Both the position numbers and the translations under genes were made by a program. From assembly GCA_046759165.1 (NCBI GenBank), contig JBHIBS010000001.1, positions 4,002 to 68,001 of the forward strand: a stretch of 64,000 bases of DNA. Reading direction: 5' to 3'. Under the pieces are notes generated by a model. It ran no database searches and was not told the DNA's origin. It worked only from the letters and a program-made list of their open reading frames with translations. This DNA is from a bacterium (GTDB lineage: Bacteria > UBA6262 > WVXT01). Below are positions 20,255 to 61,071 of the stretch, piece after piece (within the stretch, counting starts at the first letter, position 1; each line of letters starts with the position of its first letter).

Positions 20255-21270
20255 AATTCTATCTCCTCTACCAGAATACTGTTAACAAATATTCTCGCTT
20301 TTGCTTTCCCCAAAACTTGTATGGGCAATGAAATCTTCGTCCCAGGAGAATGCATTTTATGGTACACTTCCCTTTCACCTTGGCCATCCACTACCACAAT
20401 GAGAACATCCTTATCTAAAACTCCCTGGGAAACCTCATAATATATCATTGCTTCACGGATTATTTTGTGCACTGCGCTTTTCTTTGCTACAGTTACTTTG
20501 ACTATAGTATCTTCATCGATGATTTCATCCCAGTGAGGTTCTTGTTTTAAAATAGTCCCTTCGGGAACGTTATCATTTACAGTTTCTTTAATTTCACCTA
20601 GGGGTAAATTCATATCTCGCAATATCTTCCGGGCGCTGCGAATATTTTGGCCAAGCAGATTGACCATTAAAGGCACCTCTGCTTCTCTGGCTGGACCAAG
20701 ACTTACTACCAGATTAATCATGCTTCCCCTAGCAACGATCTCTTCAGGTGAAGGATCTTGCGCTATTACAAAGTCTTTTTTTATCTCCTCCGAGTAAATT
20801 CCTGTCTCCTCGCCCAGAACCAATCCTGCCTGACGGAGGAGAATCTTTGCCTCGCGTAGAGACTTCCCTACAAGCTGAGTAACGAAGATAACCTGACCGC
20901 CAGAACTAACGGTAACTTTAATAACTTTTCCTTCCTTCACTACCGACCCTGGCAGCGGCTCCTGGAAAATAATACTGCCATCTGGTATATTCTCATTATA
21001 TTGTTCACCAACTTTCTTAATATATAAGTCCTGGTCACTTAAAATCTGGAGAGCCTGCCCCACAGTCTTTCCGGTCAGATCAGGAACCATAACCTCTTTC
21101 TTCTGATGAACAACTACCCCCATCAGTTGGTTGAAGATGAGAATTCCAAATACTATAGAGGCGGAAGTAGCCAGAATGAGCTTAATAAATTTTTTTATCC
21201 CCTGTTGGAGAGAAAAAAAACCAAGTAAGATAACAGAAATTAGAATTAGAATCCCTAATATTACTTTCAT
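20251..21270 (-). CDS. PASTA-domain protein (N-terminal TM helices plus three or four PASTA repeats, no kinase domain)
   Basis: Repeats of about 65 aa (VPDLTGKTVGQALQIL..., VTQLVGKSLREAKILL..., VPLMVNLLGQNIRSARKIL...) typical of PASTA. No Ser/Thr kinase motifs are present. Confidence 0.7.
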   Translation of the reverse strand: MKVILGILILISVILLGFFSLQQGIKKFIKLILATSASIVFGILIFNQLMGVVVHQKKEVMVPDLTGKTVGQALQILSDQDLYIKKVGEQYNENIPDGSIIFQEPLPGSVVKEGKVIKVTVSSGGQVIFVTQLVGKSLREAKILLRQAGLVLGEETGIYSEEIKKDFVIAQDPSPEEIVARGSMINLVVSLGPAREAEVPLMVNLLGQNIRSARKILRDMNLPLGEIKETVNDNVPEGTILKQEPHWDEIIDEDTIVKVTVAKKSAVHKIIREAMIYYEVSQGVLDKDVLIVVVDGQGEREVYHKMHSPGTKISLPIQVLGKAKARIFVNSILVEEIEL

Positions 21271-25795: not shown

Positions 25796-26161
25796 TTAAA
25801 GCTTAAACTTTTCAGCCCAATCGCTTATGATTGGACACTTCCAGTAGTTCCCTTTAAGAACTTGAACGATTCCCACAAGAGACAGGAAAAAAAGAACCAA
25901 AGATCCTCCTGCAAAAATTAGCTGGCCCACAACTGGAATCATATTTACAGCTACAAGAGCGACTTCCAGAAGAAAAATAACGAATCCTTGCTTAGCATGG
26001 AAAATGGCAAACTTGTTAACCTTCCTCGAAAATACCGGAAGCATCCTCAATGTGGAGAAATAGACAATGGGAACCAAACAGAGAATTGACAGGTAAGTTA
26101 TCACTCCAAAAATTTTCCCCTCCATAATTATCCCTTCTTCATTTCTTGGTCCCTCTGCCAC
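25796..26161 (-). CDS. Small integral membrane protein (three predicted TM helices; family tentative, possibly DUF4870-like)
   Basis: 121 aa with three hydrophobic segments. Overlaps the udg start by 23 nt. Confidence 0.4.
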   Translation of the reverse strand: MAEGPRNEEGIIMEGKIFGVITYLSILCLVPIVYFSTLRMLPVFSRKVNKFAIFHAKQGFVIFLLEVALVAVNMIPVVGQLIFAGGSLVLFFLSLVGIVQVLKGNYWKCPIISDWAEKFKL

Positions 26162-29390: not shown

Positions 29391-30134
29391 TCAAATACTA
29401 ATTATTCTTATATTACCCCAGAATCCAAACTGGTCATCCTTAATTATAACTACTCCCTTAATCCCTTCAATACTCTTGGCAAAATTGATTCCTTTGGCAA
29501 TATCTCGACTCTCCTTTATTAAATTCCCCATACCGGTAGCACAGGCATCAGCCAGAGCACTGGAATTAGAAACGGCCACCGCCACATCGGCTCGACCGAA
29601 ACTGAAAGAATGACCCTGAGTTCCACTTGAAGCACAGATCCCAAGGGGAGTATCTGCGGGATGGACTTCAAGACCAACCCGGTTAGAAACCTCATCGGAT
29701 CCACAGTAGATTCCTACCTTGCGGAGTTTAGTAGTTTTTATAAAGACATCACCACCATTCTCAATTAATACATCCGAAATCTCCTCAGACAATTTTCTTC
29801 CCACCGCACCAGCGATCGCGCCGGCCACTGAGGCAAAAGGGCCTACATTGGCAAGCAGCGCTGCACGGGCCATCTCTTTAATAATTTCTGGAGCATCAGA
29901 ATCTACAGCCACAGGTCGAAAACTCACCTCAAAAATCGGGTAATTCCTTATATAATTCTCAATATCCCGCCGGCATTCTTCTATCAATTTCTCTGTTTTC
30001 GCGATGATACTTTCTAGATTTCCCTTTTTTCTCTTATCCACAGCTACGTATATGTCTGTTTCTTTCTCCTTAATTCTGAAGCTCACTAGGTCTTTGCTTT
30101 TGAACAATTCGCGATATCTTCTTTTCTCTCCCAT
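29391..30134 (-). CDS. UPF0280-like (ApbE-like fold) family protein
   Basis: Gly/Ala-rich segment VGPFASVAGAIAGAVGR and ENGGDVF recalled from the UPF0280 family. Assignment is by memory, not search. Confidence 0.4.
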   Translation of the reverse strand: MGEKRRYRELFKSKDLVSFRIKEKETDIYVAVDKRKKGNLESIIAKTEKLIEECRRDIENYIRNYPIFEVSFRPVAVDSDAPEIIKEMARAALLANVGPFASVAGAIAGAVGRKLSEEISDVLIENGGDVFIKTTKLRKVGIYCGSDEVSNRVGLEVHPADTPLGICASSGTQGHSFSFGRADVAVAVSNSSALADACATGMGNLIKESRDIAKGINFAKSIEGIKGVVIIKDDQFGFWGNIRIISI

Positions 30135-40222: not shown

Positions 40223-41326
40223 TTACCGGTACCCCTTCCTTCTCCGAATAAAAGTGGGCACTCGCAGGTTCTCCTTCAGATAGCCCGGCTCTCTCAGTGA
40301 CTCCTTCTTGTATTCCCATAAATCCCCTGCCAACTCTTCTTGTCTGAGTTTCTCTCCGAGAGAAGTTCGAGGTGGAGGAAAACCAGTAGCAATTACAGTA
40401 ATTTTCACCTCATCTTTGAGGATCTCATCGAATGCTTGGCCAAAAAAGACATTTGCTGCAGAGGAAGAAGCATTGTGAATTAAGTCCATTGCCTCCTTAA
40501 TTTCAAACATCGTAATATCTCTATTTCCGGTGATATTGACCAAAATACCTTTGGCGCCTGCAATAGAAACATCTTCTAACAAAGGGCAATTTATAGCTGC
40601 CTTAGCCGCCTTAATTGCTCTATCTTTCCCGCGTCCCCGTCCCATTCCCATTAACGCCTCTCCGGCACCAACCATAATCGTTTTCACATCAGCAAAATCA
40701 ACATTAATCATTCCATGTGATGTAATAATCTCTGAGATACTCTGTACTGCCTGACGCAGAACATCGTCAGCCACTTTAAAGGCATCCAGAGCCGGGGTAG
40801 TTTCATCAATAATGGCAAACAGTCTCTGGTTCGGGATAACGATCAAAGTATCGACCTTTTTCTTCATTATTTTCAATCCTTCCTCAGCCTGCTTAAAGCG
40901 AATGGGCCCTTCAAACATAAATGGCTTAGTAACCACTCCTACGGTCAGAGCCCCCAAATCTTTAGCTATCTCTGCGACAACTGGCGCGCCTCCTGTGCCG
41001 GTCCCCCCTCCCATACCCACGGTGATAAATACCATATCAGCACCTGCAAGGGTTTCCCTAATTGCATCCCGGTCTTCCTCGGCAGCCTGGCGACCTTTCT
41101 CAGGATCCCCTCCCACTCCCAAACCCTTGGTAAGATTGGCTCCCAATTGTAAGCGATATCCAGCCAGAGAATCACGAAGAGCTTGGGCATCGGTGTTTGC
41201 TGCAATAAACTCCACACCTTTTATCCCGGAGACAACCATGCGCTTGATTGCATTGCCTCCTCCGCCACCAATGCCTATAACTTTTATATTTGCAGTAAGG
41301 TCGACGTCCTGCTTGAACTTTAACAT
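40223..41326 (-). CDS. ftsZ: Cell division GTPase FtsZ
   Basis: GGGTGTG tubulin signature, T7 loop NVDFAD, C-terminal conserved peptide. Confidence 0.95.
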
Positions 41327-41404
41327 CCCACCTCCAATAAATCAGGGATAATCACGGATTAGAAGCCGCTAATTCAAACGAACATTCGTGCCCATTCGAC
41401 TTTC

Positions 41405-42634
41405 TTAAAAGACCTCTTCGAGCCAGTGTTTTATCTTGCGGAAGACAGAGGGTCTCTTTCTTCCTGTGAATCTCCTCTCATAAATAGGAAATTCATCTTT
41501 TTGGGCATATTTAATCAAGCCAATGGCTGTAGCATAGACTGGACTACAGATAACCTCTGAAAGTCCCTCCACCTTCTGGGGCACACCCAATCTCATAGGC
41601 AGGTCCAAAATCTCTTCAGTAATCTCTTTAACCCCTGATAGCAAAGCGCCGCCTCCTGTTAGAATCCCTCCAGCAGGTATTAAATTCTCCCTGCCTATTT
41701 TTGCCATCTCTTCGCGGACAAAAGTAAAGATTTCCTCTATCCGCGGCTGGATAATCTCGCAGAGTTTACTGGTCAGGATTGTCTGTCGGGATTTACCATC
41801 CATACTCAAGATATTTATTTCCACATTATCGGAAATCATCTTCATTTGGGTACAGCCAAATTCCTTCTTAATCCTTTCTGCTTCTGAGAGAGGGACATGA
41901 AGACAGTGAGCTATATCTTTTGTAATCACGTCACTTCCAATTGGAAGTGCTCTGGTGGCTTTGAGACCTCCTTCAACGAAGATGGCTAAATCCACAGTCT
42001 GTCCACCGAAATCGATAAGCACACATCCCAAATCTTTCTCCTCAGGGGTAACTACAGTTTCTGCTGCAGCTAATACGCTCAAGACTATGTTCTCTACTTC
42101 CAAGCCATTTCTATTAATACATTTGATAAGGTTGTTTATTGTGGTGGAGACTCCTGTTACAATGTGGACATGGACTCCCAGGTGACTGCCTTCCATTCCT
42201 ACGGGATCCATTACTCCCCTCTGACCATCAACCACGAAGCCCTGAGCGAGGGTATGGATGATTTCCCGCTCGGGAGATAACCGAATGGCCCGGGCTGAAT
42301 CGATGACTCTTAATATATCCTCTTCAGCGATCTCTTTATCAGAACGAGAAATCATAATTGCTCCCTGATGATTGAAACTTTCGATATGACCACCGTCAAT
42401 TCCTACGTAAACCGCTTTAATGGAAGTATTTGCCATTCCTTCTGCTTCATCTATAACTTGACCTATGGCGCGGGTGGTCTCCTCAATGTTAACCACTACA
42501 CCGTTCCGTAAACCACGACAGGGTATCCTAGCTGATCCTATTATTTCCACTTCTGGTTTCTGGGTAACTTTACCTACAAGAGCACAAACATTGCTTGAGC
42601 CTACATCAAGACCAATAATTATTTTCTGTTTCAT
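41405..42634 (-). CDS. ftsA: Cell division protein FtsA
   Basis: Actin-like ATPase; GLDVGSSNVCALVG N-terminus; follows ftsQ. Confidence 0.93.
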   Translation of the reverse strand: MKQKIIIGLDVGSSNVCALVGKVTQKPEVEIIGSARIPCRGLRNGVVVNIEETTRAIGQVIDEAEGMANTSIKAVYVGIDGGHIESFNHQGAIMISRSDKEIAEEDILRVIDSARAIRLSPEREIIHTLAQGFVVDGQRGVMDPVGMEGSHLGVHVHIVTGVSTTINNLIKCINRNGLEVENIVLSVLAAAETVVTPEEKDLGCVLIDFGGQTVDLAIFVEGGLKATRALPIGSDVITKDIAHCLHVPLSEAERIKKEFGCTQMKMISDNVEINILSMDGKSRQTILTSKLCEIIQPRIEEIFTFVREEMAKIGRENLIPAGGILTGGGALLSGVKEITEEILDLPMRLGVPQKVEGLSEVICSPVYATAIGLIKYAQKDEFPIYERRFTGRKRPSVFRKIKHWLEEVF

Positions 42635-42708
42635 TGTTTCAATGACCTTTTATTTTGCATCAATAGGTTTCTTTACAACCTCTCAAAGTCCGCGCTACAA
42701 AATACGTC

Positions 42709-43470
42709 TTAACCTACAATTATTTCTCCTTTCCCATCTCTTAGAAGTCGCAAGTCGATATAGTTAAAAGTTTTACTATTCTTTAGCAAATCCTTGAGGA
42801 CTAAATTTAAATAAGTCAACTTCTTCTCCACTTCGGTTTCTGTCTCTTTTCCCACAGGACCCCAGATAAGTGAGGCATGGTCAATTTTCAGTTTAATTTT
42901 TCTTGGATTGTTACCATCTATGTATGAAATTTTCTTATAAAACCGAAAGTCAACTACCATAACCTTAGCTAAGAAATTCACGACCTCTTTCCTGACGAGG
43001 GAATCTTTAGCTCCCAAAATTTTCGGTATCTTTCTTGCCTTCCCAAAAAACGTTATTCCCGTTTTGTCTATTAGCTTCACCTTATTAGAATGGACATTCT
43101 CTTCCCCCCCAAGCTGCGCAATGGGAACCCTCTCAGTAATTTTTAGGACTATCTTGTCAGGAAAATCGCGATGAATATCTATGTCCTTAATCTGCTCTAA
43201 ACTTCTTAACTCTTTTCTTGCCTGTCTTAATTTAACTTTGAATATATTCTCTCCTTTCTTTATGTCGAGTACCGAGAGAATATCTTTTCTATTAATATCG
43301 TGATTCCCTTCTATTCTTACCTCTTCTATTTTAAAATATGCAGAATGAATGAGGAAGTTGTAAATTTCATATCCTGAAAAAAGAAGCGTAACCAATAACA
43401 GAGTGAATTTCAAAACTCCAAAAAATCGTCTTCTCCATAAAATTCTTTTCCGCCACCTTCTGACTCTCAA
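42709..43470 (-). CDS. ftsQ: Cell division protein FtsQ/DivIB
   Basis: Basic N-terminus, single TM, POTRA domain (IEEVRIEGN); position between ddl and ftsA. Confidence 0.8.
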   Translation of the reverse strand: MRVRRWRKRILWRRRFFGVLKFTLLLVTLLFSGYEIYNFLIHSAYFKIEEVRIEGNHDINRKDILSVLDIKKGENIFKVKLRQARKELRSLEQIKDIDIHRDFPDKIVLKITERVPIAQLGGEENVHSNKVKLIDKTGITFFGKARKIPKILGAKDSLVRKEVVNFLAKVMVVDFRFYKKISYIDGNNPRKIKLKIDHASLIWGPVGKETETEVEKKLTYLNLVLKDLLKNSKTFNYIDLRLLRDGKGEIIVG

Positions 43471-43483
43471 TGCTCATCAACCC

Positions 43484-44422
43484 TCAATCTAAGGCATAGG
43501 ATAGAATTTCAACCACCAGTTGCTTAAAATCTATCCCTGCTACAGCTGCAGCTTCTGGCAGGAGACTAGTCTCAGTCATCCCGGGAATTGTGTTAACTTC
43601 TAAGAGATAAATTTTGCCTTCTCCATCCATTACCATATCTACACGAGTTGCGCCTCTACAACCCAAGGCAGAGTGAGCAGAAAGAGCCAGAGATTGGGCC
43701 AACTCGTACTGCTCCCGTTGTAATTTAGCGGGCACAATGTGCTTCGACATTCCCGGTTCATACTTTGCCTGATAGTCATAAAATGCCGTCTTTGATACAA
43801 TCTCTATTACGGGAAGAGGTTCATCTCCCAGAATTCCTACTGTAATTTCTCTTCCTTCAATGTATTCTTCAATTAATATCTTATTTCCATATCCAAAGGC
43901 AAGATTTATGGCACTATCCAGACCACTTCGCTCTCGAACTACAGTCACTCCAATAGTTGAACCTTCCCTGGCTGGCTTGACAACTACGGGGTAGTCCAGC
44001 TCTTTCAGTATATTACCAGCAGTTTTCATTCTTTTCTCAAGGACCTTGTATTTTGCCATGGGCAGGTTATGATAACTGAAGACCTCTTTGGTATAAACTT
44101 TATCCAAGGCCAGCGCACTGGCCAATACCCCAGAGCCTGTATAAGGAATACCCATTATCTCGAGAAGCCCTTGAATTGTTCCGTCTTCCCCGAGCTTCCC
44201 GTGGAGAGCAATGAAAGCCAAGTCTATCCTCTCTTTTGCCAGCCTTAAGGCTATCTCTCTATCCACATCGAGCTTCGATACATTTAACCCAAGGAAGACT
44301 AACGCTTTGTAAACAGCATCTCCTGTCCTAAGAGACACTTCCCTTTCTTGAGAACTTCCTCCACAAAGTACTCCTATCTTCTTCACCCTTAACTTACCGA
44401 GTATCTCTTTCATCCATTTCAC
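43484..44422 (-). CDS. ddl: D-alanine--D-alanine ligase
   Basis: ATP-grasp fold; GVLCGGSSQEREVSL N-terminus; E..V and GE.G..QG motifs. Confidence 0.92.
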   Translation of the reverse strand: MKWMKEILGKLRVKKIGVLCGGSSQEREVSLRTGDAVYKALVFLGLNVSKLDVDREIALRLAKERIDLAFIALHGKLGEDGTIQGLLEIMGIPYTGSGVLASALALDKVYTKEVFSYHNLPMAKYKVLEKRMKTAGNILKELDYPVVVKPAREGSTIGVTVVRERSGLDSAINLAFGYGNKILIEEYIEGREITVGILGDEPLPVIEIVSKTAFYDYQAKYEPGMSKHIVPAKLQREQYELAQSLALSAHSALGCRGATRVDMVMDGEGKIYLLEVNTIPGMTETSLLPEAAAVAGIDFKQLVVEILSYALD

Positions 44423-45320
44423 CCACCACTCTCAATTCCAATTCAAGATCTATATCGAATTTTTCCTTAATAGTTTCCCGAATTTTTTCGATTAAATTGT
44501 ACGCATCTTTAGCTTTTGCCCTGCCGCAGTTAATGATGAAATTTGCATGTTTTTTTGATACTTCAGCATCTCCAAATCTGGCTCCCTTTAGCCCTGCGGT
44601 TTCAATTAATTTTCCCGCCTCGCAATTTTCCGGATTCCTGAAAACGCAACCAGCATTAAGGGCAGAAATAGGTTGATTCCTTTTTCTCTCCTTAAGACTT
44701 TCTTTGATTTTATTTATAATATCACTTTTCTTGCCGTTTTTCAACCCTAGTTTCACCTCCAAAATTATGGCTTTATGGGGTAACTCACAATGCCTGTAAG
44801 AGAAACTTGTTTCTTCTCTCTTTAAAGTTTTCACCTTTCCATCACTGAAAATTTTTATCTCTCTCATAACATCGCCAACGGAACCCATTCTGGTGCCTGC
44901 ATTACTAACAATTGCGCCACCGAGACTTCCTGGAATTCCTGAGGCGAATTCTAAACCAGCCAAGCCTCTCTTAGCCAATTTTTCAACTAGTTTATTCAAT
45001 TTCACTCCGGCGCCGGCTGTTACCTCTTGACCTTTTATGAAAAACTTCTCAAACTCGCCTTTCAATTGAATTACCAAACCACCGAATCCCTCATCTGAAA
45101 AGAGCACATTGGTGCCCTCTCCTAAAATAAAGAAATCCAAGTTCTCTTTCCGGGAAAATTCAATTATATTAGTAAGCTCTTCAATGTTTCTCAATTCCAG
45201 AAAATAGCCCGCAGGACCGCCTATGCTGAGAGAAGTATGCCTGGAAAGGGGTTCGTCAACTCTCACTTTATTTACTACTCGTTTTTGCAATTCATTTAAT
45301 ATATCCATCGAACCCAACAC
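44394..45320 (-). CDS. murB: UDP-N-acetylenolpyruvoylglucosamine reductase MurB
   Basis: FAD-binding N-terminal domain (LGEGTNVL), catalytic SNAGT...GS region. Confidence 0.9.
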   Translation of the reverse strand: MLGSMDILNELQKRVVNKVRVDEPLSRHTSLSIGGPAGYFLELRNIEELTNIIEFSRKENLDFFILGEGTNVLFSDEGFGGLVIQLKGEFEKFFIKGQEVTAGAGVKLNKLVEKLAKRGLAGLEFASGIPGSLGGAIVSNAGTRMGSVGDVMREIKIFSDGKVKTLKREETSFSYRHCELPHKAIILEVKLGLKNGKKSDIINKIKESLKERKRNQPISALNAGCVFRNPENCEAGKLIETAGLKGARFGDAEVSKKHANFIINCGRAKAKDAYNLIEKIRETIKEKFDIDLELELRVVGEMDERDTR

Positions 45321-47498
45321 CTAGGTCCTCTCACGATTTTCTTCCCAGATGGGTAGGAAGATAGTAAACTTGGTTCCTTTCTCTACTTCGCTCTCTACAT
45401 TTATTTCCCCATTGTGGTCTCTTATTATACGATAAGCCATTGACAATCCCACTCCTGTTCCTTTGGAGCCCTTGGTGGTAAAGAAGAGGTCGAACAGTTT
45501 ATCTAGGTTCTCTTTAGAAATTCCGCAACCATTATCTGCTATTGTTATCTCGACCTTTTCCGGATTATCTTTTCCAGCACTTGCTGAAATGGTGAGTTCT
45601 CCTTTCTTACCAGCCATCGCCTCGCAGGCATTTATAATCATATTCAAAAAGACCTGTTCCAGCTGGACACCAATCCCTTTTATCTTGGCCAAATCTTGGG
45701 GAATATCTTTACTTACATTAATACCTCCCCGAGAAATTTGATACTGTGCTAAGCCCAGGGCATCTTCCATTACAGAATTCAAGTCTGTCGGCAGAAAGTC
45801 CCTATCAGAAGGTTTAGCATAGCCCCTTATCCTCTGGATGAGCTTAGCCGCCCTGTGAGCAGTCTCCACCATCTTCTCCTGTCTGTCCCTTATGGTTTGC
45901 AGGATTTCTTTCTCCCTTTCAGTCAGATTTGCTTGACTGAAATCTTCCTTTATGTCACGGATGCACAACTCAGCGCCCATACTGACAATGGCTAAAGGGT
46001 TATCTATCTGATGGGCAAAGCCAGCAGCCAACTCCCCAACGGAAGAGAGCCTAGCCGCCTGAATCATTGTCGCTTGAGACTCTTTAAGTTCCTGATAGAA
46101 TTGAGCATTCTCAATCGCTAAAGCAGCCTGCCCGGCTAAAATCTTAAACATGTCTAAATCGTCAGGCGTATAAATCTCTTTGGAGCGCTTTGTACCCAAC
46201 ACTAAAAAGGCAGTCAGCTCTTCACCGATGAAAGCAGGCAATAATAGAGATGCCCCCATACTTCTCAATTGTGTTTCCACTTCTCCCAGGTGTTCTCGCT
46301 CGCTGGTCTGAAAATGGCTGATAACTTCCTCTTTCAAAATAGGTCCTCTATCTCTACTTCTGGATAGTATCTGAATTAAAGGAGCATCTTTAGATAGAGA
46401 ATCTCCGACCTGTTTTCTTCTCTCTTTGCCATAGCGAATCTCCCGCACATATTGATTGGTTCTCTTATCCCATAGATAAATGCGGGCATGACTGATTCCG
46501 ATTTCCTTCGTCACATCACGAATGATTAAAACCAAAAGGCTCCTTAGATCTTTGGTCAAAGTCATTTGCTTTGCCAAGTTTATTAAGTTTTGTTGGTATA
46601 TCCTTTGCTTCTTTAAAAGGATTCTATTAGCTCTCTCCTGGAAGTAATGACTTATGGTAGGAGCAACAAAAGCGAGTAATTCACACCCAGCCACACCAGC
46701 TGGCACAAGCCACCAATAAGTACCAAAGTACCGATATAAAAAAGGCCGATGAAGAACAAGAAGTAACGGTGGAATTCCTAAAAAGATAGAGTAAACGGTT
46801 GTAAATATCGCCGTCTTAGTGACCGCCGCGGTAATATCCATCAGCCGCGTCGTAATGATTGCATAAGTTATTATAATAGGATATAAGAAAACTAAATAAT
46901 GACCAAATGGAAATATCGGGATATTATAAATCAATGGATAGTTGGTCGCTCCTCCACCGAATCCAATAATAGAAGCTAACAAGATATATCTTATCTGGTT
47001 ACGCTTGTACCCAGAGACCTCTTTATACTTTGTGAGCATAATATAAATAGAATAGACAACGCACGAAGAGAATGTTAAAAGGAAGAAGTGGTACACGACA
47101 CCAGGTTGCGGATAATACCTAAAGGAAAGCTTAGGGACTATGTCTTTAATAAAGAAAGGAGTCAAATTAAAACTTAGAAGGACTAGACCGATTAAGTAAA
47201 CGCATTTAATTAATCTTTTCCGTTTCTCTCGGAGATCCAAAAACGAATGAACAAAATCGAGAAAAAATACAGGAATCAAAGTAGCACCAGAATAAAGAAC
47301 TCGTGTCCAAAATAGAGCTTTCCCCTTGTCAATCGAGAGCAACAACATAAAATAGGCAAATCCCCAAATAAATATGCTCATGCTTAACAAGCACCATATT
47401 TTGTTTGTAAATTGTTTTCTATTCTTAAAATATACGAATAATCCAAGAATTAAACCGATTATTGCGGTTATTAAACATGATAGTGCAAAGTACATCAA
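45321..47498 (-). CDS. Sensor histidine kinase: multi-TM N-terminal domain, GAF, HisKA, HATPase_c (no cognate response regulator adjacent)
   Basis: About seven hydrophobic helices in the first 280 aa; GAF-like region; H-box ELAAGFAHQIDNPL; N/G1/G2 boxes (NACEAM, DNGCGI, GSKGTGVGL). Its stop abuts the murB start, and its start is 3 nt from the DUF362 stop. Confidence 0.85.
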   Translation of the reverse strand: MMYFALSCLITAIIGLILGLFVYFKNRKQFTNKIWCLLSMSIFIWGFAYFMLLLSIDKGKALFWTRVLYSGATLIPVFFLDFVHSFLDLREKRKRLIKCVYLIGLVLLSFNLTPFFIKDIVPKLSFRYYPQPGVVYHFFLLTFSSCVVYSIYIMLTKYKEVSGYKRNQIRYILLASIIGFGGGATNYPLIYNIPIFPFGHYLVFLYPIIITYAIITTRLMDITAAVTKTAIFTTVYSIFLGIPPLLLVLHRPFLYRYFGTYWWLVPAGVAGCELLAFVAPTISHYFQERANRILLKKQRIYQQNLINLAKQMTLTKDLRSLLVLIIRDVTKEIGISHARIYLWDKRTNQYVREIRYGKERRKQVGDSLSKDAPLIQILSRSRDRGPILKEEVISHFQTSEREHLGEVETQLRSMGASLLLPAFIGEELTAFLVLGTKRSKEIYTPDDLDMFKILAGQAALAIENAQFYQELKESQATMIQAARLSSVGELAAGFAHQIDNPLAIVSMGAELCIRDIKEDFSQANLTEREKEILQTIRDRQEKMVETAHRAAKLIQRIRGYAKPSDRDFLPTDLNSVMEDALGLAQYQISRGGINVSKDIPQDLAKIKGIGVQLEQVFLNMIINACEAMAGKKGELTISASAGKDNPEKVEITIADNGCGISKENLDKLFDLFFTTKGSKGTGVGLSMAYRIIRDHNGEINVESEVEKGTKFTIFLPIWEENRERT

Positions 47499-47500
47499 TT

Positions 47501-48643
47501 TTATACCACCGATAATTTCACACTCAGATAATTTACGACGTGTTTTAGGGAGGGAGGACAGCCCTCTAAGTGCTCTACATTATTCTTTTTACACCATTCT
47601 TGTGCACAATCTCCTATGCCTATGCATTTACCCATTCGCGAGACGTCCAATCCATGGCAGTTTCCAAATACTACATCTGTTCTGAATAAATGTGACCTCG
47701 TAAAGAGGGAGAAACTGGGAATAAATTTTCTTTTTATTTCTTTGCCTGCTCTATCAAGGTTGATGATGCACCTCGAACATGCACTAGTCGGCCAAATGTA
47801 TAGTTTTTTTCCCTTTAGAATAAACCTTGTAGCCGGGACGAATTTGACCATTCTGTCTTCATTCTCTCTGATTTTACTCTCCTGGACAAATTTTCCAGCC
47901 CCAATATTTTCTGCTATACAAATATGTTTTACACGTGAATAGTCTAGTCCTATCATCGCCGCCGCAAACGAATCAATCTCAACCATATCGTCACCACAGA
48001 AGACCAGATTTGCTGTTCTATCCTTACCATGATGTGGTCCATTTTCTTCCATTCCTGTAATGCCTTCTATCATATTTAGGGTTGGCTTAATAATTTCTCC
48101 TAGATACGCAATATATCTATCCAAATCCAGCTTGTGCATCTGGAGCTTATTAACCGACGGTAACACCCCCATTTGGTTTTTCAGGGATAGTGTTACTCCT
48201 GTTTCCATATGCGTCTTAAGCTTCGCTAGGTTAATGTAGCTGTCGACTTCAGTCAAAATTTCAGGTATCATAAAGGTTATTTGCTTACATTTTACCTTCC
48301 TCCTTTTGGCCTTGTCTAAATTTAAAAGGGTTACTCCTCTAAGAGAGGCGAATTGTTGAAAATTAGAAAGTTTAAGGATTCGTTCGAAAGGATAAGGCTG
48401 TTCAGGAGTTCCTATGAGAGAAGTATGTCCAATTATAACTTTACAGTTTCTTCCTAACAAAAAGGCAAGCAGTTCTTTCATAAAATTCGCATCGGTATTT
48501 TCACTTTTATAAATTGGGACTCTACCTCCCAAGTTTGGCTTGATAAAAATCTTGCCCCTAGGTTTGAACCCCATCTTATTGAAAAGGCTTTCAACATGAC
48601 TTCTCAGATCTCCTCCGCCATACTTTTCTAAGAGGACAGCCAT
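47501..48643 (-). CDS. DUF362 domain protein with Cys-rich C-terminal extension
   Basis: IFIKPNLGG and AKLKTH core typical of DUF362; C-terminal CSRCIINLD...CHG...CIGIGDCAQEWC...C cluster. Confidence 0.6.
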   Translation of the reverse strand: MAVLLEKYGGGDLRSHVESLFNKMGFKPRGKIFIKPNLGGRVPIYKSENTDANFMKELLAFLLGRNCKVIIGHTSLIGTPEQPYPFERILKLSNFQQFASLRGVTLLNLDKAKRRKVKCKQITFMIPEILTEVDSYINLAKLKTHMETGVTLSLKNQMGVLPSVNKLQMHKLDLDRYIAYLGEIIKPTLNMIEGITGMEENGPHHGKDRTANLVFCGDDMVEIDSFAAAMIGLDYSRVKHICIAENIGAGKFVQESKIRENEDRMVKFVPATRFILKGKKLYIWPTSACSRCIINLDRAGKEIKRKFIPSFSLFTRSHLFRTDVVFGNCHGLDVSRMGKCIGIGDCAQEWCKKNNVEHLEGCPPSLKHVVNYLSVKLSVV

Positions 48644-48878
48644 TTTTCGGAACCTTCTTTTTCCTCTCCCCTGTCTGGATAGTTAAGACAAGATTGTTTT
48701 ATTCATTAGAAATACTCTTCCGCGACTCTCTTGCTTAGCGGCCTTCTTAGCTTTTTTGGATTGACAATATTGAGTTTCCGCATACGCCCAAATATACTGG
48801 TTCTAATTTATAGGCGATAACATACCTTCGGGGTCATGTTTTTCAACCCGGTTTTAGCTTTTTCTACCCCAATTCTAA

Positions 48879-49766
48879 CTATGTAGAAAAAGTCTTGGGT
48901 ATTTGCGATAGGTTCGATATTTTGTCCATGACCTCATCTGCCATTTTTTGCAATGTATTTTTACTGGTCTTTTTGCCGAAGTACTTATTTAGAAAAATCT
49001 GCTCACCTATGCGGACTTTACACCTGCGAGAAAGACGGGGAAAAGGCACATCTCTCGGGAATACATCAAATGTCCCTGTAATGCCCACAGGGATTATTGG
49101 GACCCTTGCTACTATTCCAAGTTTTACAAATCCTAGTTTCCCTCTCTGAATTTTTCCATTTATAGATCTACTTCCTTCCGGGAATATTACTACCACTTTA
49201 TTTTGCTGCAAAATCTTCACTACTTCTCTAAAATATTTTACTCCAGGTTCTTCTCTGTCCAAGTAAATCCTCTCGTTATATCTCATAAACCATCTTAAAA
49301 TCGACACTCGATGTAATTCCCGTGCTGCCAAAAAATATAATCTTCTTCTTATTACAGCAGATATAATAAAGAAATCAAGATAACTAGCGTGATTTGCCAC
49401 AATGATAGCACTATCTAATTTCGGCACACTCTCTATACCTTCTACTTCCCGTATCCAAAAAAGATAAAGAATTGCCCTTACTATTGGCTTTGTTAACAGA
49501 TAAAAGACTCTTACGAGTAGTGGAGTTCTACGGTCAAATGCCCTGCGTTCGGATTTTGATCTCCTGTCGAGGAAATCGATCTCTATTTTTTTGACCCTTC
49601 GTTCCTTACGTCTACGTTCCCTTTGTTTACGGCTGTTCATGTATACATTTTGCTTCTGATAAGGGTCTTCAATCAACCTATGTTTAATTTTATAACTTGC
49701 AAAATTACCCAGCATCTCGTCATCTTTAGTATACATTTTGCCAAGAATGTGCCAGATTTTGCCCAT
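48879..49766 (-). CDS. Lysophospholipid (1-acyl-sn-glycerol-3-phosphate) acyltransferase family protein, PlsC-like
   Basis: HxxxxD motif in IVANHASYLDF and FPEGSRS motif. A TM helix precedes the domain. About 80 aa of Arg/Lys-rich N-terminal sequence has an uncertain start. Confidence 0.8.
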   Translation of the reverse strand: MGKIWHILGKMYTKDDEMLGNFASYKIKHRLIEDPYQKQNVYMNSRKQRERRRKERRVKKIEIDFLDRRSKSERRAFDRRTPLLVRVFYLLTKPIVRAILYLFWIREVEGIESVPKLDSAIIVANHASYLDFFIISAVIRRRLYFLAARELHRVSILRWFMRYNERIYLDREEPGVKYFREVVKILQQNKVVVIFPEGSRSINGKIQRGKLGFVKLGIVARVPIIPVGITGTFDVFPRDVPFPRLSRRCKVRIGEQIFLNKYFGKKTSKNTLQKMADEVMDKISNLSQIPKTFST

Positions 49767-49923
49767 TGACTCTTTTTCAGACTCCTTGGTCGGCGACCAT
49801 CCCGCTCGGGCAAAGTTAATTGCAGGTTGTCCCCACGTTCTTTTTGGATATCTGAGAATTCATCTGTGGATTCTGTCAATGAAGCCTCCCTTTTCGGAAG
49901 GACTCCAATTTTGAGCTGCCAGC

Positions 49924-51291
49924 CTAAATTTTCGTCAAAATTTCTTCCCCGATTTTATAGACGTCGCCGGCTCCTAATGTGAGAAGCAGATCCTGGGGGC
50001 GTACCCTTTTGACGACCTCCTCAATTAGAGCTTCTCGGTTTGAAACCAAAGTAACAGTTCCTCTCTTCTCGGCAGGGAAGGATTCCAGGATTAAGGATGA
50101 AGAGATTCCTGGAATGGGCTTCTCTCCCGCAGAATAGATATCTGTGAGCCAAATTTGGCTGACACTTTCAAAGGAGGGTCCAAATTTTTCTGCTAGGTCT
50201 CTCGTGCGCGTATACCGATGCGGCTGGAAGATAACTAACAGCCTCCTTTCTGGCCAGATCGATTTGATCGTCTCCAGAGTTACTCTTATTTCTGTGGGAT
50301 GGTGTCCATAGTCGTCTATAAACACTATATCGTTCTTTCTGGCCTTAATCTCCAGCCTTCGACTAACGCCAGTAAAATCAACAAAAGCCTTTCGAATCTT
50401 TTCAAATTCTATTCCCAGTTCAATACCGACCGCAGCTGCGCCTAGAGAGTTGATGACGTTATAAGCTCCAGGAAGGTGCAGTTTGAGCCTGCCCAGATTT
50501 CTTCCAGAAAAGCAGAGGTCAAATTCAGTGTCCATTCCTTCATACACTATATTTTCCGCATAAAAATCAAGGGTTTTCCCTCTCCCATAAGTATAATATT
50601 TTCTCGTTATTTGAGGAATAATTGACTTGATATTCAGATCCTCACCGCAAAGGATAATAGACCCATAAAAAGGAACTTTATTTACGAACTGTATAAAAGC
50701 ACTTTTGATATTATCCAAGGTTTTATAGTAATCAAGATGGTCATCGTCTATATTTGTGAGAAGGGCGATAGTGGGAGTAAGTTTGAGAAAAGAGCCGTCG
50801 CTCTCATCTGCTTCAGCCACTATGAACTCCCCCTTACCCAATTTAGCAGAAGAGCCAATATTTTTTAAACGCCCGCCAATTACTACTGTGGGATCCAATC
50901 CACCCTCCGCCAGAACCATGGCTACAAGTGAAGTGGTCATTGTTTTTCCATGGGTACCAGCAATTGTCAGAGCATACTTCAACCTCATCAACTCGGCAAG
51001 CATCTCAGCTCGAGGAATAACTGGAATTTTAAGTTTCTTTGCTTGAACCACTTCCGGATTATCAAGGAGTACCGCGCTGGAAGTAACCACCACGTGGGCA
51101 TCTCCCACCTGTTTAGGTCTATGACCGATAAATATTTCACCGCCCAGGGATGCCAACCTCTGTGTCACCTCTGTCTGCCTGAGGTCCGACCCACTAACTT
51201 TATAGCCCAAATTTATCAGGACTTCAGCAATTCCGCTCATCCCCGAACCACCTATTCCCACCAAATGTATGTGTTGAATCTTCTTTAACAT
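49924..51291 (-). CDS. murC: UDP-N-acetylmuramate--L-alanine ligase MurC
   Basis: IHLVGIGGSGMSGIA N-terminus; Mur ligase central domain GTHGKTTT. Confidence 0.93.
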   Translation of the reverse strand: MLKKIQHIHLVGIGGSGMSGIAEVLINLGYKVSGSDLRQTEVTQRLASLGGEIFIGHRPKQVGDAHVVVTSSAVLLDNPEVVQAKKLKIPVIPRAEMLAELMRLKYALTIAGTHGKTMTTSLVAMVLAEGGLDPTVVIGGRLKNIGSSAKLGKGEFIVAEADESDGSFLKLTPTIALLTNIDDDHLDYYKTLDNIKSAFIQFVNKVPFYGSIILCGEDLNIKSIIPQITRKYYTYGRGKTLDFYAENIVYEGMDTEFDLCFSGRNLGRLKLHLPGAYNVINSLGAAAVGIELGIEFEKIRKAFVDFTGVSRRLEIKARKNDIVFIDDYGHHPTEIRVTLETIKSIWPERRLLVIFQPHRYTRTRDLAEKFGPSFESVSQIWLTDIYSAGEKPIPGISSSLILESFPAEKRGTVTLVSNREALIEEVVKRVRPQDLLLTLGAGDVYKIGEEILTKI

Positions 51292-51316: not shown

Positions 51317-52396
51317 CTACATTGCTTCAATTAAATCGGCCATCCTGGTGGCTGCATCGTCAATAGACAGTCTTCTTGTATTATCGGCCATGCCCCTCAA
51401 CTCTGCCTGGTCATCAATCAAGTGGATGATGATATCAGCTAGTATCTCACCCGTTAACTGATCGTCCTCAATGAGTAGACAAGCCCCTCTCTTTGATAGA
51501 AACTCAGCATTCGTCTTCTGGTGACCAGCAGTTGCATAAGGATAGGGAATAAGAATGCTGGGTAACCCTTTTGCTATGATTTCAGCGACAGTACTTGCGC
51601 CAGAGCGGGAAATTACCAGATCACAACAGCTATAGGCATATTCCATATGGAGAAGATAAGGAAGAACACATGACGAGTAATCTCTTTTCTCGTATTCTTC
51701 TCTTATTTCCGAAAATTGCTCAATGCCCACAATGTGTATAATTTGAATCTTCTTCCTCAGCGGGGTCAAAAAATTTAATGCCTTTACTGTTGCCAGGTTT
51801 ATGCTATGGGCGCCTTGACTCCCTCCAAAAACCAGGAGGTTCTTCTTGCCCTCCACCAGATTCAACTTTCTTACCCCCTCGCTTCTTGCACAACTTAAGA
51901 TGGATTTGCGAACAGGGTTTCCCGTAAGAAATGTCTTCTTAGAGGGAAAATATCTTTCGGTCTCTTTAAAACTGACCGTTATTATATTGACTATCTTGGC
52001 TAAAATTCTATTGGTCAGTCCAGGAAGAACATTTTGCTCGTGAATCGCACAAGTTATTCTAGAGATTTTAGCTGCCAGAACTACTGGGAAGGCTAAATAT
52101 CCCCCCATTCCCACAACTATATCTGGTCTGAAACATCGGAAGATCTGTATAGACTGGAAGAACCCTTGAATAAATTTTCCAAGAAAGCGGATAACTTTCA
52201 GTGAAAATCCCCTTACCAAACCTTCTCCCACAATTTGGAAGAATGAGAATCCACTTTCTTGTGCTATTCTCTCGCCAATCCCTCTCTTTTTTCCCACCAG
52301 AATAACTTCATTATTGCGTTTTCTCAACTTTTCTCCCAGTGCCAGACCTGGGTAAATGTGTCCACCCGTCCCTCCCAGAACAATCAAAATACGCAT
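51317..52396 (-). CDS. murG: UDP-GlcNAc:undecaprenyl-PP-MurNAc-pentapeptide GlcNAc transferase MurG
   Basis: GGTGGH N-terminal motif; GT-B fold; dcw position. Confidence 0.92.
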   Translation of the reverse strand: MRILIVLGGTGGHIYPGLALGEKLRKRNNEVILVGKKRGIGERIAQESGFSFFQIVGEGLVRGFSLKVIRFLGKFIQGFFQSIQIFRCFRPDIVVGMGGYLAFPVVLAAKISRITCAIHEQNVLPGLTNRILAKIVNIITVSFKETERYFPSKKTFLTGNPVRKSILSCARSEGVRKLNLVEGKKNLLVFGGSQGAHSINLATVKALNFLTPLRKKIQIIHIVGIEQFSEIREEYEKRDYSSCVLPYLLHMEYAYSCCDLVISRSGASTVAEIIAKGLPSILIPYPYATAGHQKTNAEFLSKRGACLLIEDDQLTGEILADIIIHLIDDQAELRGMADNTRRLSIDDAATRMADLIEAM

Positions 52397-59373: not shown

Positions 59374-61071
59374 CTACGATTCAGGCGGGACACCGAGATG
59401 GTGCATAATTCTCAATCCAACTCGTGCGAATACCGGAGCAGCCACGCTTCCTCCCCAGTAAAATCCTTGTGGCTCATCCAGTAGGACCAAGATAGTGATC
59501 CTCGGTCGGTCTGCTGGGAGATAACCAACGAATGAGGCAATGTAGTTTGTTTTAGAATACTTACCAGTGGCTGGGTCGAATTTTTGAGCGGTTCCCGTCT
59601 TACCAGCTACCCTATACCCTACAATTTCTGCTTCTTTCCCCGTGCCATTTTCTACAATTCCGCACAAAATATCGGTTAAAGTTTGCGCTGTCTTAGAAGA
59701 AATCACCCGCCTAACCGGGCAGGGGTGGAATTCTGTCACCACTTTTCCCTTAGAATCGATGATTCTGTTAGCAATCATGGGTTCCATCAACACTCCTCCA
59801 TTGGCCAAACATGAAAAGGCAGAAATAAGCTGGATGGCAGTTACTCCTACGCCCTGCCCGAAAGAGAGGCGGCTGAGAGATATTTCTGACCAATCTTTTG
59901 GTTTCTTCAAAATTCCCGGCGTCTCACCCGGCAACCTAATTCCCGTGTAGTTGCCAAAACCGAAATCCCTTACGTACTGGTACAACCTATTTTTCCCCAA
60001 CAGCTGCCCCGCTTTAACCATTCCAATATTGGACGATTTTTCAAGAACCTGAACAAAAGTAAGCCAGCCCTCACCTTCGTGGTCTCGAACAGGAAACCCG
60101 TTGAGCACGTAAACTCCGTTCTCACAATAGAATAGATCTTCCAATGTGACGAGGTTCTCCTCCAATAATGCTACCGCCACTATTGGTTTAAAAGTAGATC
60201 CTGGTTCAAAAATATTAGAGATAGCAGGAATCTTTAAGTACTTATATTTTTCCGGGAAAGATTTATTTCCATTGAAAGATGGGAAGCTAGCCAAGGCTAA
60301 GATTTCCCCGGTTTGAGGATCTTGAACAATGATTGTGGCGAGTTTGGCTTTAGTTTCTTCATAAGCTTTCCTCAACTCCACTTCAGCAATGTACTGGATT
60401 ACTCTGTCGATTGTGGTGACTACACCGTATCCACTTACCTCCGATGGATAAGCAGTGCCAGCAGCGATTACTTCCCGACCAAAGCCATCTTTTGTCCCGA
60501 TAGTTTTCTTGTTTTTCCCTCTTAGAATTGTGTCAAAGGAATTCTCAATTCCGGACAGACCTTGATTATCCAGACCGGCTAAACCGATTACTTGGCTAGC
60601 TAACTCATTTTCAGGATAGAATCTTTTGCCTTCGCTCATAAACTCGATCCCTTTAAGATGCAAGTTTTTAATCTTTTCCGCAATTTCCGTATCCACTTTG
60701 CGTCTCAGCCAGACGAAAGAATTTGAAGTCTCCAATTTTCTGCAAATCGCTTTCTCGCTTAAATCGAGCAAAGGCGCTAACTTTCTAGCTGTCTCTTCCG
60801 GATTCGAGATGGAAGACGGAATTGCATAGACCGAACTAACTTCAAATTCTATTGCGAGTTCCTTCCCATTGCGGTCATAAATTGTGCCCCTTTTGAACTC
60901 ATATTGTCTGACCAAGATAGATTGCTTATCCGCCATCCTCTTGTACCGATGATGGCTAATAATCTGGATATAATACAACCTAATTTCCAATACGATAAGA
61001 GTAAGAATTACTACCAGAATAGAAGTGATAATGCGAGTTTTTCGAGGCACCTTTTGAATCCTCACGGGCAA
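59374..61071 (-). CDS. ftsI: Peptidoglycan D,D-transpeptidase FtsI (class B PBP)
   Basis: N-terminal TM, PBP dimerisation domain, transpeptidase motifs SxxK (STFKP), SSN and KTGT. Confidence 0.92.
   Translation of the reverse strand: MPVRIQKVPRKTRIITSILVVILTLIVLEIRLYYIQIISHHRYKRMADKQSILVRQYEFKRGTIYDRNGKELAIEFEVSSVYAIPSSISNPEETARKLAPLLDLSEKAICRKLETSNSFVWLRRKVDTEIAEKIKNLHLKGIEFMSEGKRFYPENELASQVIGLAGLDNQGLSGIENSFDTILRGKNKKTIGTKDGFGREVIAAGTAYPSEVSGYGVVTTIDRVIQYIAEVELRKAYEETKAKLATIIVQDPQTGEILALASFPSFNGNKSFPEKYKYLKIPAISNIFEPGSTFKPIVAVALLEENLVTLEDLFYCENGVYVLNGFPVRDHEGEGWLTFVQVLEKSSNIGMVKAGQLLGKNRLYQYVRDFGFGNYTGIRLPGETPGILKKPKDWSEISLSRLSFGQGVGVTAIQLISAFSCLANGGVLMEPMIANRIIDSKGKVVTEFHPCPVRRVISSKTAQTLTDILCGIVENGTGKEAEIVGYRVAGKTGTAQKFDPATGKYSKTNYIASFVGYLPADRPRITILVLLDEPQGFYWGGSVAAPVFARVGLRIMHHLGVPPES

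Follow-up and report, generated by a model that had tools for sequence, protein, structure and literature searches.

The window, the 64-kb stretch of DNA analysed here, carries a dcw cluster on its minus strand in the canonical order ftsI-murE-murF-mraY-murD-ftsW-murG-murC-murB-ddl-ftsQ-ftsA-ftsZ, save for a 4.6-kb insert between murC and murB. The upstream part of the cluster is complete (ftsI, murE, murF, mraY, murD, ftsW and murG). The insert is bordered upstream by murC, which codes for UDP-N-acetylmuramate--L-alanine ligase (49924..51291; TIGR01082, 521 bits against a cut-off of 335), and downstream by murB (44394..45320; PRK13905, 326 bits). Past murB, the cluster continues with ddl (43484..44422; PRK01372, 402 bits) and then with ftsQ, ftsA and ftsZ (40223-43470, from gene calls on the identical contig L001). 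An earlier note on this DNA had placed three non-canonical, co-oriented genes between murC and murB, and this description holds: all three are on the minus strand, and profile matches identify them, giving the order murG-murC-[PF01553 acyltransferase, DUF362, HisKA_7TM-GAF-HisKA-HATPase kinase]-murB-ddl-ftsQAZ. An assembly artefact is ruled out, since separately assembled contigs from other samples (L001/L002, at 99.9% identity, L064, L070 and L073) carry the same dcw junctions.

The first gene of the insert (48879..49766) codes for a lysophospholipid-type acyltransferase, which matches PF01553 at 97.2 bits against a gathering cut-off of 23 (E 9e-28). Like the PlsC/LPLAT acyltransferases, it has this domain with both catalytic motifs intact, HX4D (HASYLD) at residue 126 and FPEGSR at residue 195. 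It differs from them in an Arg/Lys-rich N-terminal extension of ~90 amino acids and in the constant linkage of its gene to DUF362 and a 7TM kinase. Assignment to PlsC proper (1-acylglycerol-3-phosphate O-acyltransferase, TIGR00530) was rejected, as the score of 90.6 bits is under the equivalog cut-off of 102.95. The start chosen by NCBI lies 30 nt later and gives a protein of 285 amino acids. By sequence reading, a spacer of 157 nt (49767..49923, minus strand) separates the gene from murC, and a second spacer of 235 nt (48644..48878, minus strand) separates it from the DUF362 gene. In sister cassettes, the 235-nt slot is occupied by a HAD-IB phosphatase gene. Pairings of HAD-IB proteins with acyltransferases exist, annotated as 'HAD-IB family hydrolase/lysophospholipid acyltransferase'; the sister cassettes resemble them in that a PF12710 HAD gene accompanies the acyltransferase gene, with HAD and DUF362 fused in some cases, whereas the window has no HAD gene. 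A tblastn search detected no HAD remnant anywhere in the 64-kb window, and the 235-nt spacer gave no Rfam hit and a fold z-score of +1.16.

The second gene (47501..48643) codes for a DUF362 protein of 380 amino acids with a C-terminal Cys4 site. It matches PF04015 at 133.9 bits against a gathering cut-off of 24 (E 1e-38), covering profile positions 1-199 of 200. When its AF2 model (pLDDT 95) was compared with the PDB using Foldseek, the top 18 matches were all LarA-family proteins, with probabilities of 0.98-1.0 and TM-scores of only about 0.4. On the basis of this model, the protein is predicted to have a LarA-like two-domain fold, LarA being the only solved fold that matches it. DUF362 and the DUF2088 of LarA also belong to the same Pfam clan, CL0471 (PMC11770544). 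In contrast, we found no significant sequence similarity between the two: a Pfam search of the protein matched PF04015 only, the DUF362 profile had no match at E<=10 among PDB sequences, and hhalign against LarA gave probabilities of 0.1-1.4%, with nothing from full-length profile comparisons. Across 76 DUF362 sequences, K35, N37, K143, H145, K155, N156, H170 and D224 are invariant. A further difference from LarA is an added C-terminal domain, with four cysteines (C289, C292, C346 and C362) that are invariant in the 47-member subfamily to which the window protein belongs. The literature searched assigns no role to DUF362.

The third gene (45321-47498, minus strand) codes for a sensor kinase with matches to HisKA_7TM, GAF_2/GAF_3, HisKA and HATPase_c. 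Its N-terminal membrane sensor (46629..47498, residues 1-290) consists of a HisKA_7TM domain (PF16927, residues 9-223, 64.5 bits against a gathering cut-off of 28.6) plus two more transmembrane helices, and is modelled as a GPCR-like 7-helix bundle. A GAF domain follows (46107..46553, residues 316-464; GAF_2 E 1.8e-7, GAF_3 E 1.8e-8), and then the catalytic core with the stop codon (45321..46037), in which HATPase_c scored 91.8 bits (E 4.7e-26) and HisKA 26.5 bits against a cut-off of 26.9. The kinase boxes are intact, with the H-box HQIDNP at H496, the N-box at 619, G1 (DNGCG) at 655 and G2 (GTGVGL) at 680. The longest NCBIfam alignment (residues 210-716) was to PrsK, the XrtA/PEP-CTERM system histidine kinase (TIGR02916), which likewise has a multi-TM N-terminus, a GAF domain and an NtrB-like HisKA/HATPase core. 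We rejected this identity: against a curated threshold of 300, the score is 109.5 bits, the alignment leaves out the 7TM region, and the window kinase has neither a PrsR-type regulator nor a PEP-CTERM context. The absence of a response regulator from the window, claimed in the earlier note, was borne out, since hmmsearch of all six-frame ORFs of the 64 kb with a CheY/OmpR/Spo0F profile returned no receiver domain (best E 1.2), and the same profile found receivers in related loci at E 1e-8 to 1e-31. The term orphan fits the kinase within the window's own clade but not more widely: in distant cassettes, a single-domain receiver often comes after the orthologous kinase (8-10 of 18 loci, within 600 bp in 8).

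The trio had also been described as translationally coupled, which does not hold uniformly. By sequence reading, the DUF362 stop codon TAA is followed by 2 nt and a TTG, with an ATG 3 nt beyond, and the kinase stop codon TAG directly adjoins the GTG that opens the murB frame, with the next ATG 12 nt downstream. The acyltransferase gene, however, is set apart by its two spacers. Among the dcw-type lineages, the kinase-murB junction is not conserved (0, about 36, 88 and 128 nt), and two of them, L062 and L073, have GC-rich hairpins there; the tight coupling is thus a peculiarity of the window. Position effects of murB were reportedly described by Real & Henriques in 2006, a study that PMC10214165 cites. 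The sole terminator-like element in the murC-acyltransferase spacer is a weak 5-bp hairpin, and this spacer is poorly conserved among dcw-type relatives. Because no convincing terminator was found, we infer that in these lineages the cassette is probably transcribed by read-through with the dcw operon, such that murB would now depend on transcription passing through it. Given the promoter-like hexamers present inside the cassette, this dependence is an assumption.

The conservation of the trio was surveyed in 27 GTDB species-representative loci with the close DUF362 subfamily. The acyltransferase gene was directly upstream of DUF362 (within 600 bp) in 21 of the 27, and of the 24 loci that could be assessed for a downstream kinase, 18 had one within 1.5 kb whose 7TM domain is homologous (E about 1e-40); 14 loci had both neighbours. 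At cassette loci, the kinase gene most often overlaps the DUF362 gene or adjoins it directly. The hosts belong to many uncultivated lineages, among them Patescibacteria, Omnitrophota, WOR-1 and Cloacimonadota, as well as MAGs labelled Planctomycetes or Proteobacteria (such labels are unreliable for MAG contigs), and the genomic sites are unrelated. Neighbouring genes at these other loci share a lipid or envelope theme: MGDG synthase, an LpxL-like acyltransferase, GT2/GT4, NAD-epimerase, a second PF01553 gene and a HAD-DUF362 fusion. Distant and archaeal DUF362 loci showed none of the links to acyltransferase, kinase or receiver. We conclude that the acyltransferase-DUF362-kinase trio is a real, co-inherited and self-contained cassette, apparently undescribed in the literature searched. 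The earlier note had proposed an undescribed module wired into peptidoglycan synthesis and division; the conserved, undescribed unit stands, but a specific tie to peptidoglycan or division is not supported, as dcw genes (murB/murC/ddl/ftsQ) were found within 10 kb of the cassette in none of the 27 loci.

The dcw position of the cassette is limited to one small clade, possibly Elusimicrobiota. We found it in five lineages (the window/L001, L064, L062, L070 and L073), and in the window/L001, L064 and L070 the order is murC-acyltransferase-DUF362-kinase-murB-ddl-ftsQ. The cassette of this clade lacks the HAD phosphatase gene, and no receiver adjoins it. The dcw position is more than a one-off: the five lineages are diverged, their housekeeping proteins differing by 15-35%, and the cassette genes, with dN/dS of 0.09-0.24, are under purifying selection. 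Sister lineages with 75-76% DUF362 identity carry the cassette elsewhere as acyltransferase-HAD-DUF362-kinase (L058, L059, L065, L066, L068 and L069; in L058 and L059 the HAD gene is PF12710 and sits between the acyltransferase and DUF362 genes), which speaks against reading the insertion as a specific tie to peptidoglycan. Another relative, L060, matches the window collinearly across 24 kb (80-85% DNA identity), and its murC and murB are separated by 84 nt with no insert; homology stops at 49918, just past the murC stop, and restarts at 45303. In the DUF362 tree, dcw-type L070 branches first, and the clade may have had the cassette in dcw ancestrally; a single NJ tree (bootstrap 88) and pairwise identities are the basis for deciding which of the dcw and non-dcw positions came first. 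Intervening genes have been noted within dcw clusters of some lineages (PMC10214165). The window resembles these in being an otherwise canonical cluster with foreign genes inside, and differs in that the segment is a conserved signalling and enzyme cassette rather than a single accessory gene, retained over several diverged lineages.

Taken together, we consider it probable that 45321-49766 is a cassette for envelope-lipid modification and sensing, which landed in dcw and is carried there, with a peptidoglycan association that is positional and clade-specific. The DUF362 and acyltransferase enzymes would act on a membrane lipid or a lipid-linked acceptor, with DUF362 using a LarA-like His-Lys-His pocket and a Cys4 metal or Fe-S site, and the 7TM kinase may sense a membrane-borne signal related to this chemistry. 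The peptidoglycan association would then belong to the gene position in this clade and would not be a property of the cassette, which is itself the interesting part. Because DUF362 proteins have no known biochemical function, the lipid role rests on the acyltransferase and the neighbouring genes.

A different interpretation is a functional wiring of the cassette into peptidoglycan synthesis and division, in which co-transcription with murB-ddl-ftsQAZ would be adaptive, coordinating lipid remodelling or signalling with wall growth. Retention of the dcw position in at least five diverged lineages, purifying selection on the genes there, the kinase stop abutting the murB frame in the window and the early branching of L070 are consistent with it, as is the strong constraint normally placed on dcw gene order (PMC10214165). 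Persistence in five diverged lineages could reflect selection rather than inertia. However, clean loss of a segment once inserted in an essential operon is difficult, which makes retention by itself a weak argument. Together with the GTDB loci, all lacking nearby dcw genes, the empty site in L060, the sister cassettes located elsewhere and the variable kinase-murB junction, this leads us to regard functional wiring as unlikely.

A narrower form of the lipid-cassette explanation, concerning its enzymatic step, is that DUF362 is a LarA-like nickel-pincer-nucleotide (NPN) enzyme, which racemises or epimerises, or oxidises or reduces, a 2-hydroxy group on the substrate or product of the acyltransferase. 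In LarA, H174, K184 and H200 are one catalytic His, the NPN-binding Lys and a Ni-ligand His (PMC11770544). In a region-restricted hhalign alignment that is not significant (P 0.038, probability 1.4%), DUF362 H145/K155/H170, all of them among the invariant residues, fall on these three positions at near-identical spacing (10 and 15 residues in DUF362, 10 and 16 in LarA), so that the His-x9-Lys-x14/15-His of DUF362 is superposable on the LarA motif. LarA R75 and H108 have only uncertain counterparts in DUF362. The fold of the model, matching LarA-family NPN enzymes only, and the common clan also favour this idea. Against it are the low TM-scores, the negative full-length profile comparisons and the absence of the NPN-biosynthesis genes larB, larC and larE from the 64-kb window and from every 10-kb flank. 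Several hosts are also Patescibacteria, with small genomes, and the Cys4 site, like the 4Fe-4S fusions known from other members of the DUF362 family, speaks for redox chemistry of another kind. We hold the NPN assignment to be doubtful. That an ordinary two-component kinase and two unrelated metabolic genes were brought together by chance or by MAG misassembly is highly improbable: each protein is from a very common family and the window is from a metagenome-assembled genome, but the same adjacency occurs in dozens of independent contigs and phyla, and the dcw junctions recur in independent assemblies from other samples.

Extending the lipid-cassette explanation, we offer as speculation, with less confidence than the NPN assignment, that acyltransferase-(HAD)-DUF362-7TM kinase constitutes an undescribed system for membrane-lipid modification and sensing, widespread among uncultivated bacteria and present in CPR as well. 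A LarA-fold DUF362 with a tethered pincer-type or Fe-S cofactor might modify a lipid head group or hydroxyacyl moiety, the acyltransferase might install the product, and the GPCR-like 7TM kinase might monitor it in the membrane; the window's clade would have recruited the system into dcw, bringing membrane remodelling into step with wall synthesis and division. The dcw cluster is among the most order-conserved in bacteria, and because of this a 4.6-kb cassette between murC and murB in several lineages is a useful natural case for seeing how an essential operon tolerates, or exploits, genes of foreign origin. The predicted LarA-like fold, the invariant His-Lys-His motif and the Cys4 site provide a testable active-site hypothesis for DUF362. 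This is a large family (1568 clusters at 50% identity, at E<=1e-30 against the profile of this subfamily), for which the tight cross-phylum link to an acyltransferase, a HAD phosphatase and a 7TM sensor kinase offers a concrete experimental entry point.

The dcw (cell-wall and division) gene cluster of the window is complete by Pfam and NCBIfam assignment, with three extra genes between murC and murB. All genes of this region lie on the minus strand: ftsI (59374-61071) is followed by murE, murF, mraY, murD and ftsW, in that order, then by murG (51317-52396) and murC (49924-51291), and beyond the three extra genes come murB (44394-45320), ddl (43484-44422), ftsQ, ftsA and ftsZ (40223-41326). 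The extra genes encode a PF01553 acyltransferase (48879-49766) with HX4D at residue 126 and FPEGSR at residue 195, a DUF362 protein of 380 aa (47501-48643), and a kinase of 725 aa (45321-47498) that comprises a HisKA_7TM domain, two further transmembrane helices, a GAF domain and a HisKA/HATPase core. Catalytic motifs are intact in both the acyltransferase and the kinase, whose core has H496 and the N, G1 and G2 boxes. The NCBI protein accessions of the source assembly are MFQ5866410-18, and the best named homologues of the window's Rho come from Elusimicrobiota (77-82%), a phylum to which the window may tentatively be assigned. The gene identities thus bear out the placement of a trio between murC and murB in the earlier note. 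Its statement that the junctions are coupled held for DUF362 and the kinase (2-5 nt) and for the kinase and murB, where the TAG stop is directly followed by a GTG in the murB frame, but not for the acyltransferase, which is separated from murC by 157 nt and from DUF362 by 235 nt. Residues 1-90 of the acyltransferase (49497-49766) form an Arg/Lys-rich N-terminal extension (26 K/R per 90 aa, with RRxxERR/DRR-type repeats) restricted to the window's clade; acyltransferases of distant cassettes have 200-245 aa.

Searching for homologues of the DUF362 protein revealed a distinct subfamily with proteins of about 380 aa, the best match among GTDB species representatives being 44%. Examined individually, homologues at 40-47% identity lay at unrelated genomic sites and shared their neighbours with the window: the acyltransferase was directly upstream of DUF362 and a HisKA_7TM kinase directly downstream, with an NAD-epimerase gene sometimes intervening between DUF362 and the kinase. 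To count these associations, we used the window proteins to score all six-frame ORFs at loci retrieved from one genome per GTDB species. Among 27 loci with the close DUF362 subfamily, 21 had the acyltransferase within 600 bp upstream of DUF362, 18 of the 24 that could be assessed had a kinase with a homologous 7TM domain within 1.5 kb downstream, and 14 had both. The gap between DUF362 and the kinase was -24 to +9 nt in most loci, and a receiver followed the kinase within 600 bp in eight. Record titles name Nealsonbacteria, other Patescibacteria, WOR-1, Omnitrophota and Cloacimonadota, as well as MAGs labelled Planctomycetes, Proteobacteria or Saccharibacteria. None of these neighbours was found at 21 more distant, mostly archaeal, DUF362 loci; the association therefore belongs to this subfamily and exceeds chance by far. 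We conclude that acyltransferase, DUF362 and 7TM kinase are a co-inherited unit. The literature searched for this cassette or for HisKA_7TM ligands yielded nothing beyond domain censuses, and the suggestion of an undescribed module is supported in a more general form than first proposed, across phyla and at unrelated sites. The accompanying proposal that the module is wired into peptidoglycan synthesis is not supported as a property of the module, as murB, murC, ddl or ftsQ was found within 10 kb in none of the 27 loci.

Further genes accompany the cassette in some genomes. Downstream of the kinase in locus L003 come a CheY-like receiver, a GAF-HD protein, an MGDG-synthase-like glycosyltransferase, an LpxL-like acyltransferase and a GT2 protein. 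A HAD-IB phosphatase is fused to DUF362 in some homologues (P0022, P0054). In one genome with such a fusion (loci L008/L017), a second DUF362 gene with 4Fe-4S motifs lies about 1.3 kb downstream (L008 13161-14315), with dprA between the two DUF362 genes and an LpxL-like acyltransferase after the second; loci L023 and L024 likewise have two DUF362 paralogues.

We sorted close relatives into three groups by cassette position. The cassette lies in the dcw cluster, without a HAD-IB phosphatase gene (HAD), in the window and the 99.9% identical L001/L002, in L064 (murC-acyltransferase-DUF362-kinase), in L070, where murB, ddl and ftsQ follow the same order of genes and DUF362 is 72% identical, in L073, where the kinase precedes murB, ddl, ftsQ, ftsA and ftsZ, and in L062/L063, where an extra 7TM-GAF-GGDEF-wHTH gene precedes the acyltransferase. 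Six loci (L058, L059, L065, L066, L068, L069) have the cassette elsewhere, in the order acyltransferase-HAD-DUF362-kinase, with DUF362 75-76% identical to that of the window; a search of the whole window, its 235-nt spacer included, found no HAD remnant. About 24 kb of L060, whose FtsZ shares a 90% cluster with that of the window, align collinearly with the window at 80-85% DNA identity, and the murC-murB gap of L060 is just 84 nt; homology stops exactly at 49918 and restarts at 45303. The linkage of the cassette genes held across genomes, and the dcw insertion held in relatives of one clade but not in L060 or the HAD-type loci. The dcw location is clade-restricted.

Mobile-element signatures were not found at the borders of the insert: flanking direct or inverted repeats there do not exceed chance, and a transposase is absent. 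Repeated insertion at the same dcw site is an alternative to a single early entry. The housekeeping proteins of L070 are more distant from the window than those of L060 (MurB 73% and 76% identity, Ddl 80% and 86%, FtsQ 66% and 71%, respectively), and L070 is the first branch in a neighbour-joining tree of DUF362 rooted on L003, in which the other dcw-type copies and the HAD-type copies form sister groups (bootstrap 88). The simplest reading would be that the cassette entered the dcw cluster of this clade early and that the L060/HAD-type lineage later relocated or lost it. Whatever their position, the cassette genes are under purifying selection (dN/dS 0.09-0.24).

The kinase-murB junction is not conserved, at 0 nt in the window, about 36 nt in L070, 88 nt in L073 and 128 nt in L062/L063. 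GC-rich hairpins occur in the junctions of L073 (1444-1531) and L062 (6585-6714), as a perfect hairpin, CCCTCTCCC-TCAA-GGGGAGAGGG, with a partial duplication in L073; in the window, this spacer has been lost entirely. The hairpin may be a REP-like element, or may act in RNA stability or attenuation. Within the window's own spacers, a search for terminators returned weak hairpins only, Rfam gave no match at E<=1 bar a spurious snoRNA match, and the 235-nt spacer folds no better than shuffled sequence.

The earlier note had also described the kinase as lacking a response regulator, and a receiver-domain profile run against six-frame ORFs of the 64 kb window agreed (best E 1.2); the same profile readily detects receivers in related loci. 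A receiver is absent here, whereas distant cassettes often have one. The 7TM domain is modelled as a receptor-like bundle, and its resemblance to GPCRs is no guide to the ligand because any seven-helix bundle tends to match GPCRs in the PDB; HisKA_7TM is catalogued as a sensor domain without a known signal. A conserved GFGGGATN stretch at residues 178-185 contains an invariant GGAxN, and this motif together with P196 are candidates, from sequence conservation, for a binding site in the sensor. Neighbours of c-di-GMP type recur, namely GAF-HD after the receiver (L003, L032, L036), a GGDEF-wHTH paralogue (L062) and a PilZ fusion (L059), which hints at second-messenger output where a DNA-binding regulator is absent. 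In the 81%-identical relative L062 (2-1990; also L063), the acyltransferase is preceded by the gene for a paralogous 7TM-GAF sensor in which GGDEF and an OmpR-type winged helix (Trans_reg_C) replace the kinase core; this protein uses the same input module in one-component form. In L059 (1464-5088), genes for two GAF-only proteins and a PilZ-aminotransferase fusion lie upstream of the HAD-type cassette; the GAF-only genes are 82-86% identical in DNA to the GAF-encoding part of the window's kinase gene and thus are recent partial duplicates.

The DUF362 structure model (pLDDT 95) had as its only credible PDB matches 18 hits to racemases of the LarA family, which use the nickel-pincer nucleotide (NPN) (E 5e-6 to 7e-4, probability 0.98-1.0). 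TM-scores were about 0.4, a value expected when a two-domain protein differs in the angle between its domains, and DUF362 and the DUF2088 of LarA belong to one Pfam clan (PMC11770544). Neither PDB profile search nor full-length hhalign found a sequence link between DUF362 and LarA. With hhalign restricted to the central region of both profiles, the alignment was collinear but not significant (P 0.038) and placed DUF362 H145, K155 and H170 on LarA H174, K184 and H200, the LarA sequence used being identical to 5HUQ; in LarA, these residues serve as one of the catalytic histidines, as the lysine that binds NPN and as the fourth ligand of nickel (PMC11770544). K35, N37, K143, H145, K155, N156, H170 and D224 are invariant in 76 of 76 close and distant DUF362 sequences, and only the cassette subfamily has H73, H204, H205, C289, C292, C346 and C362, the last with Pro-Pro after it. 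Fusions to 4Fe-4S domains in other members of the DUF362 family make a metal or Fe-S site plausible. No lar genes were seen in the window or any flank, and NPN use by DUF362 is an unlikely possibility, not a finding.

From the LPLAT membership of the acyltransferase, from the HAD partner and from the glycolipid and lipid A-type genes that recur nearby, we infer that the substrate of the cassette enzymes is a membrane lipid or a lipid-linked acceptor. The kinase would sense a membrane-borne cue tied to this lipid chemistry. In the window's clade, the cassette is probably read through with the dcw genes, so that murB expression would pass through it, and wiring into peptidoglycan synthesis within this clade is a minority possibility. 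The novelty lies in the cassette and the DUF362 fold assignment rather than in the dcw context.

Outside the cassette and dcw cluster, the window carries housekeeping genes and one rRNA operon. Of the remaining ORFs, 30 were scanned with Pfam, and every one with a match was housekeeping (ruvABC, EF-G, rho, the rRNA operon, trmD, rimM, rpe, rsmB, fmt, priA, coaBC, gmk, lspA, proC and others), and none was an NPN-biosynthesis or other lipid gene. Four minus-strand ORFs of 121-247 aa amid these genes (6572-7291, 14631-15152, 25796-26161 and 29391-30134) had no Pfam match at E<=1e-5. Between rsmB and rpe lies a stand-alone PASTA protein of 339 aa (20251-21270, minus strand), which has three PASTA repeats without a Ser/Thr kinase or transpeptidase domain.
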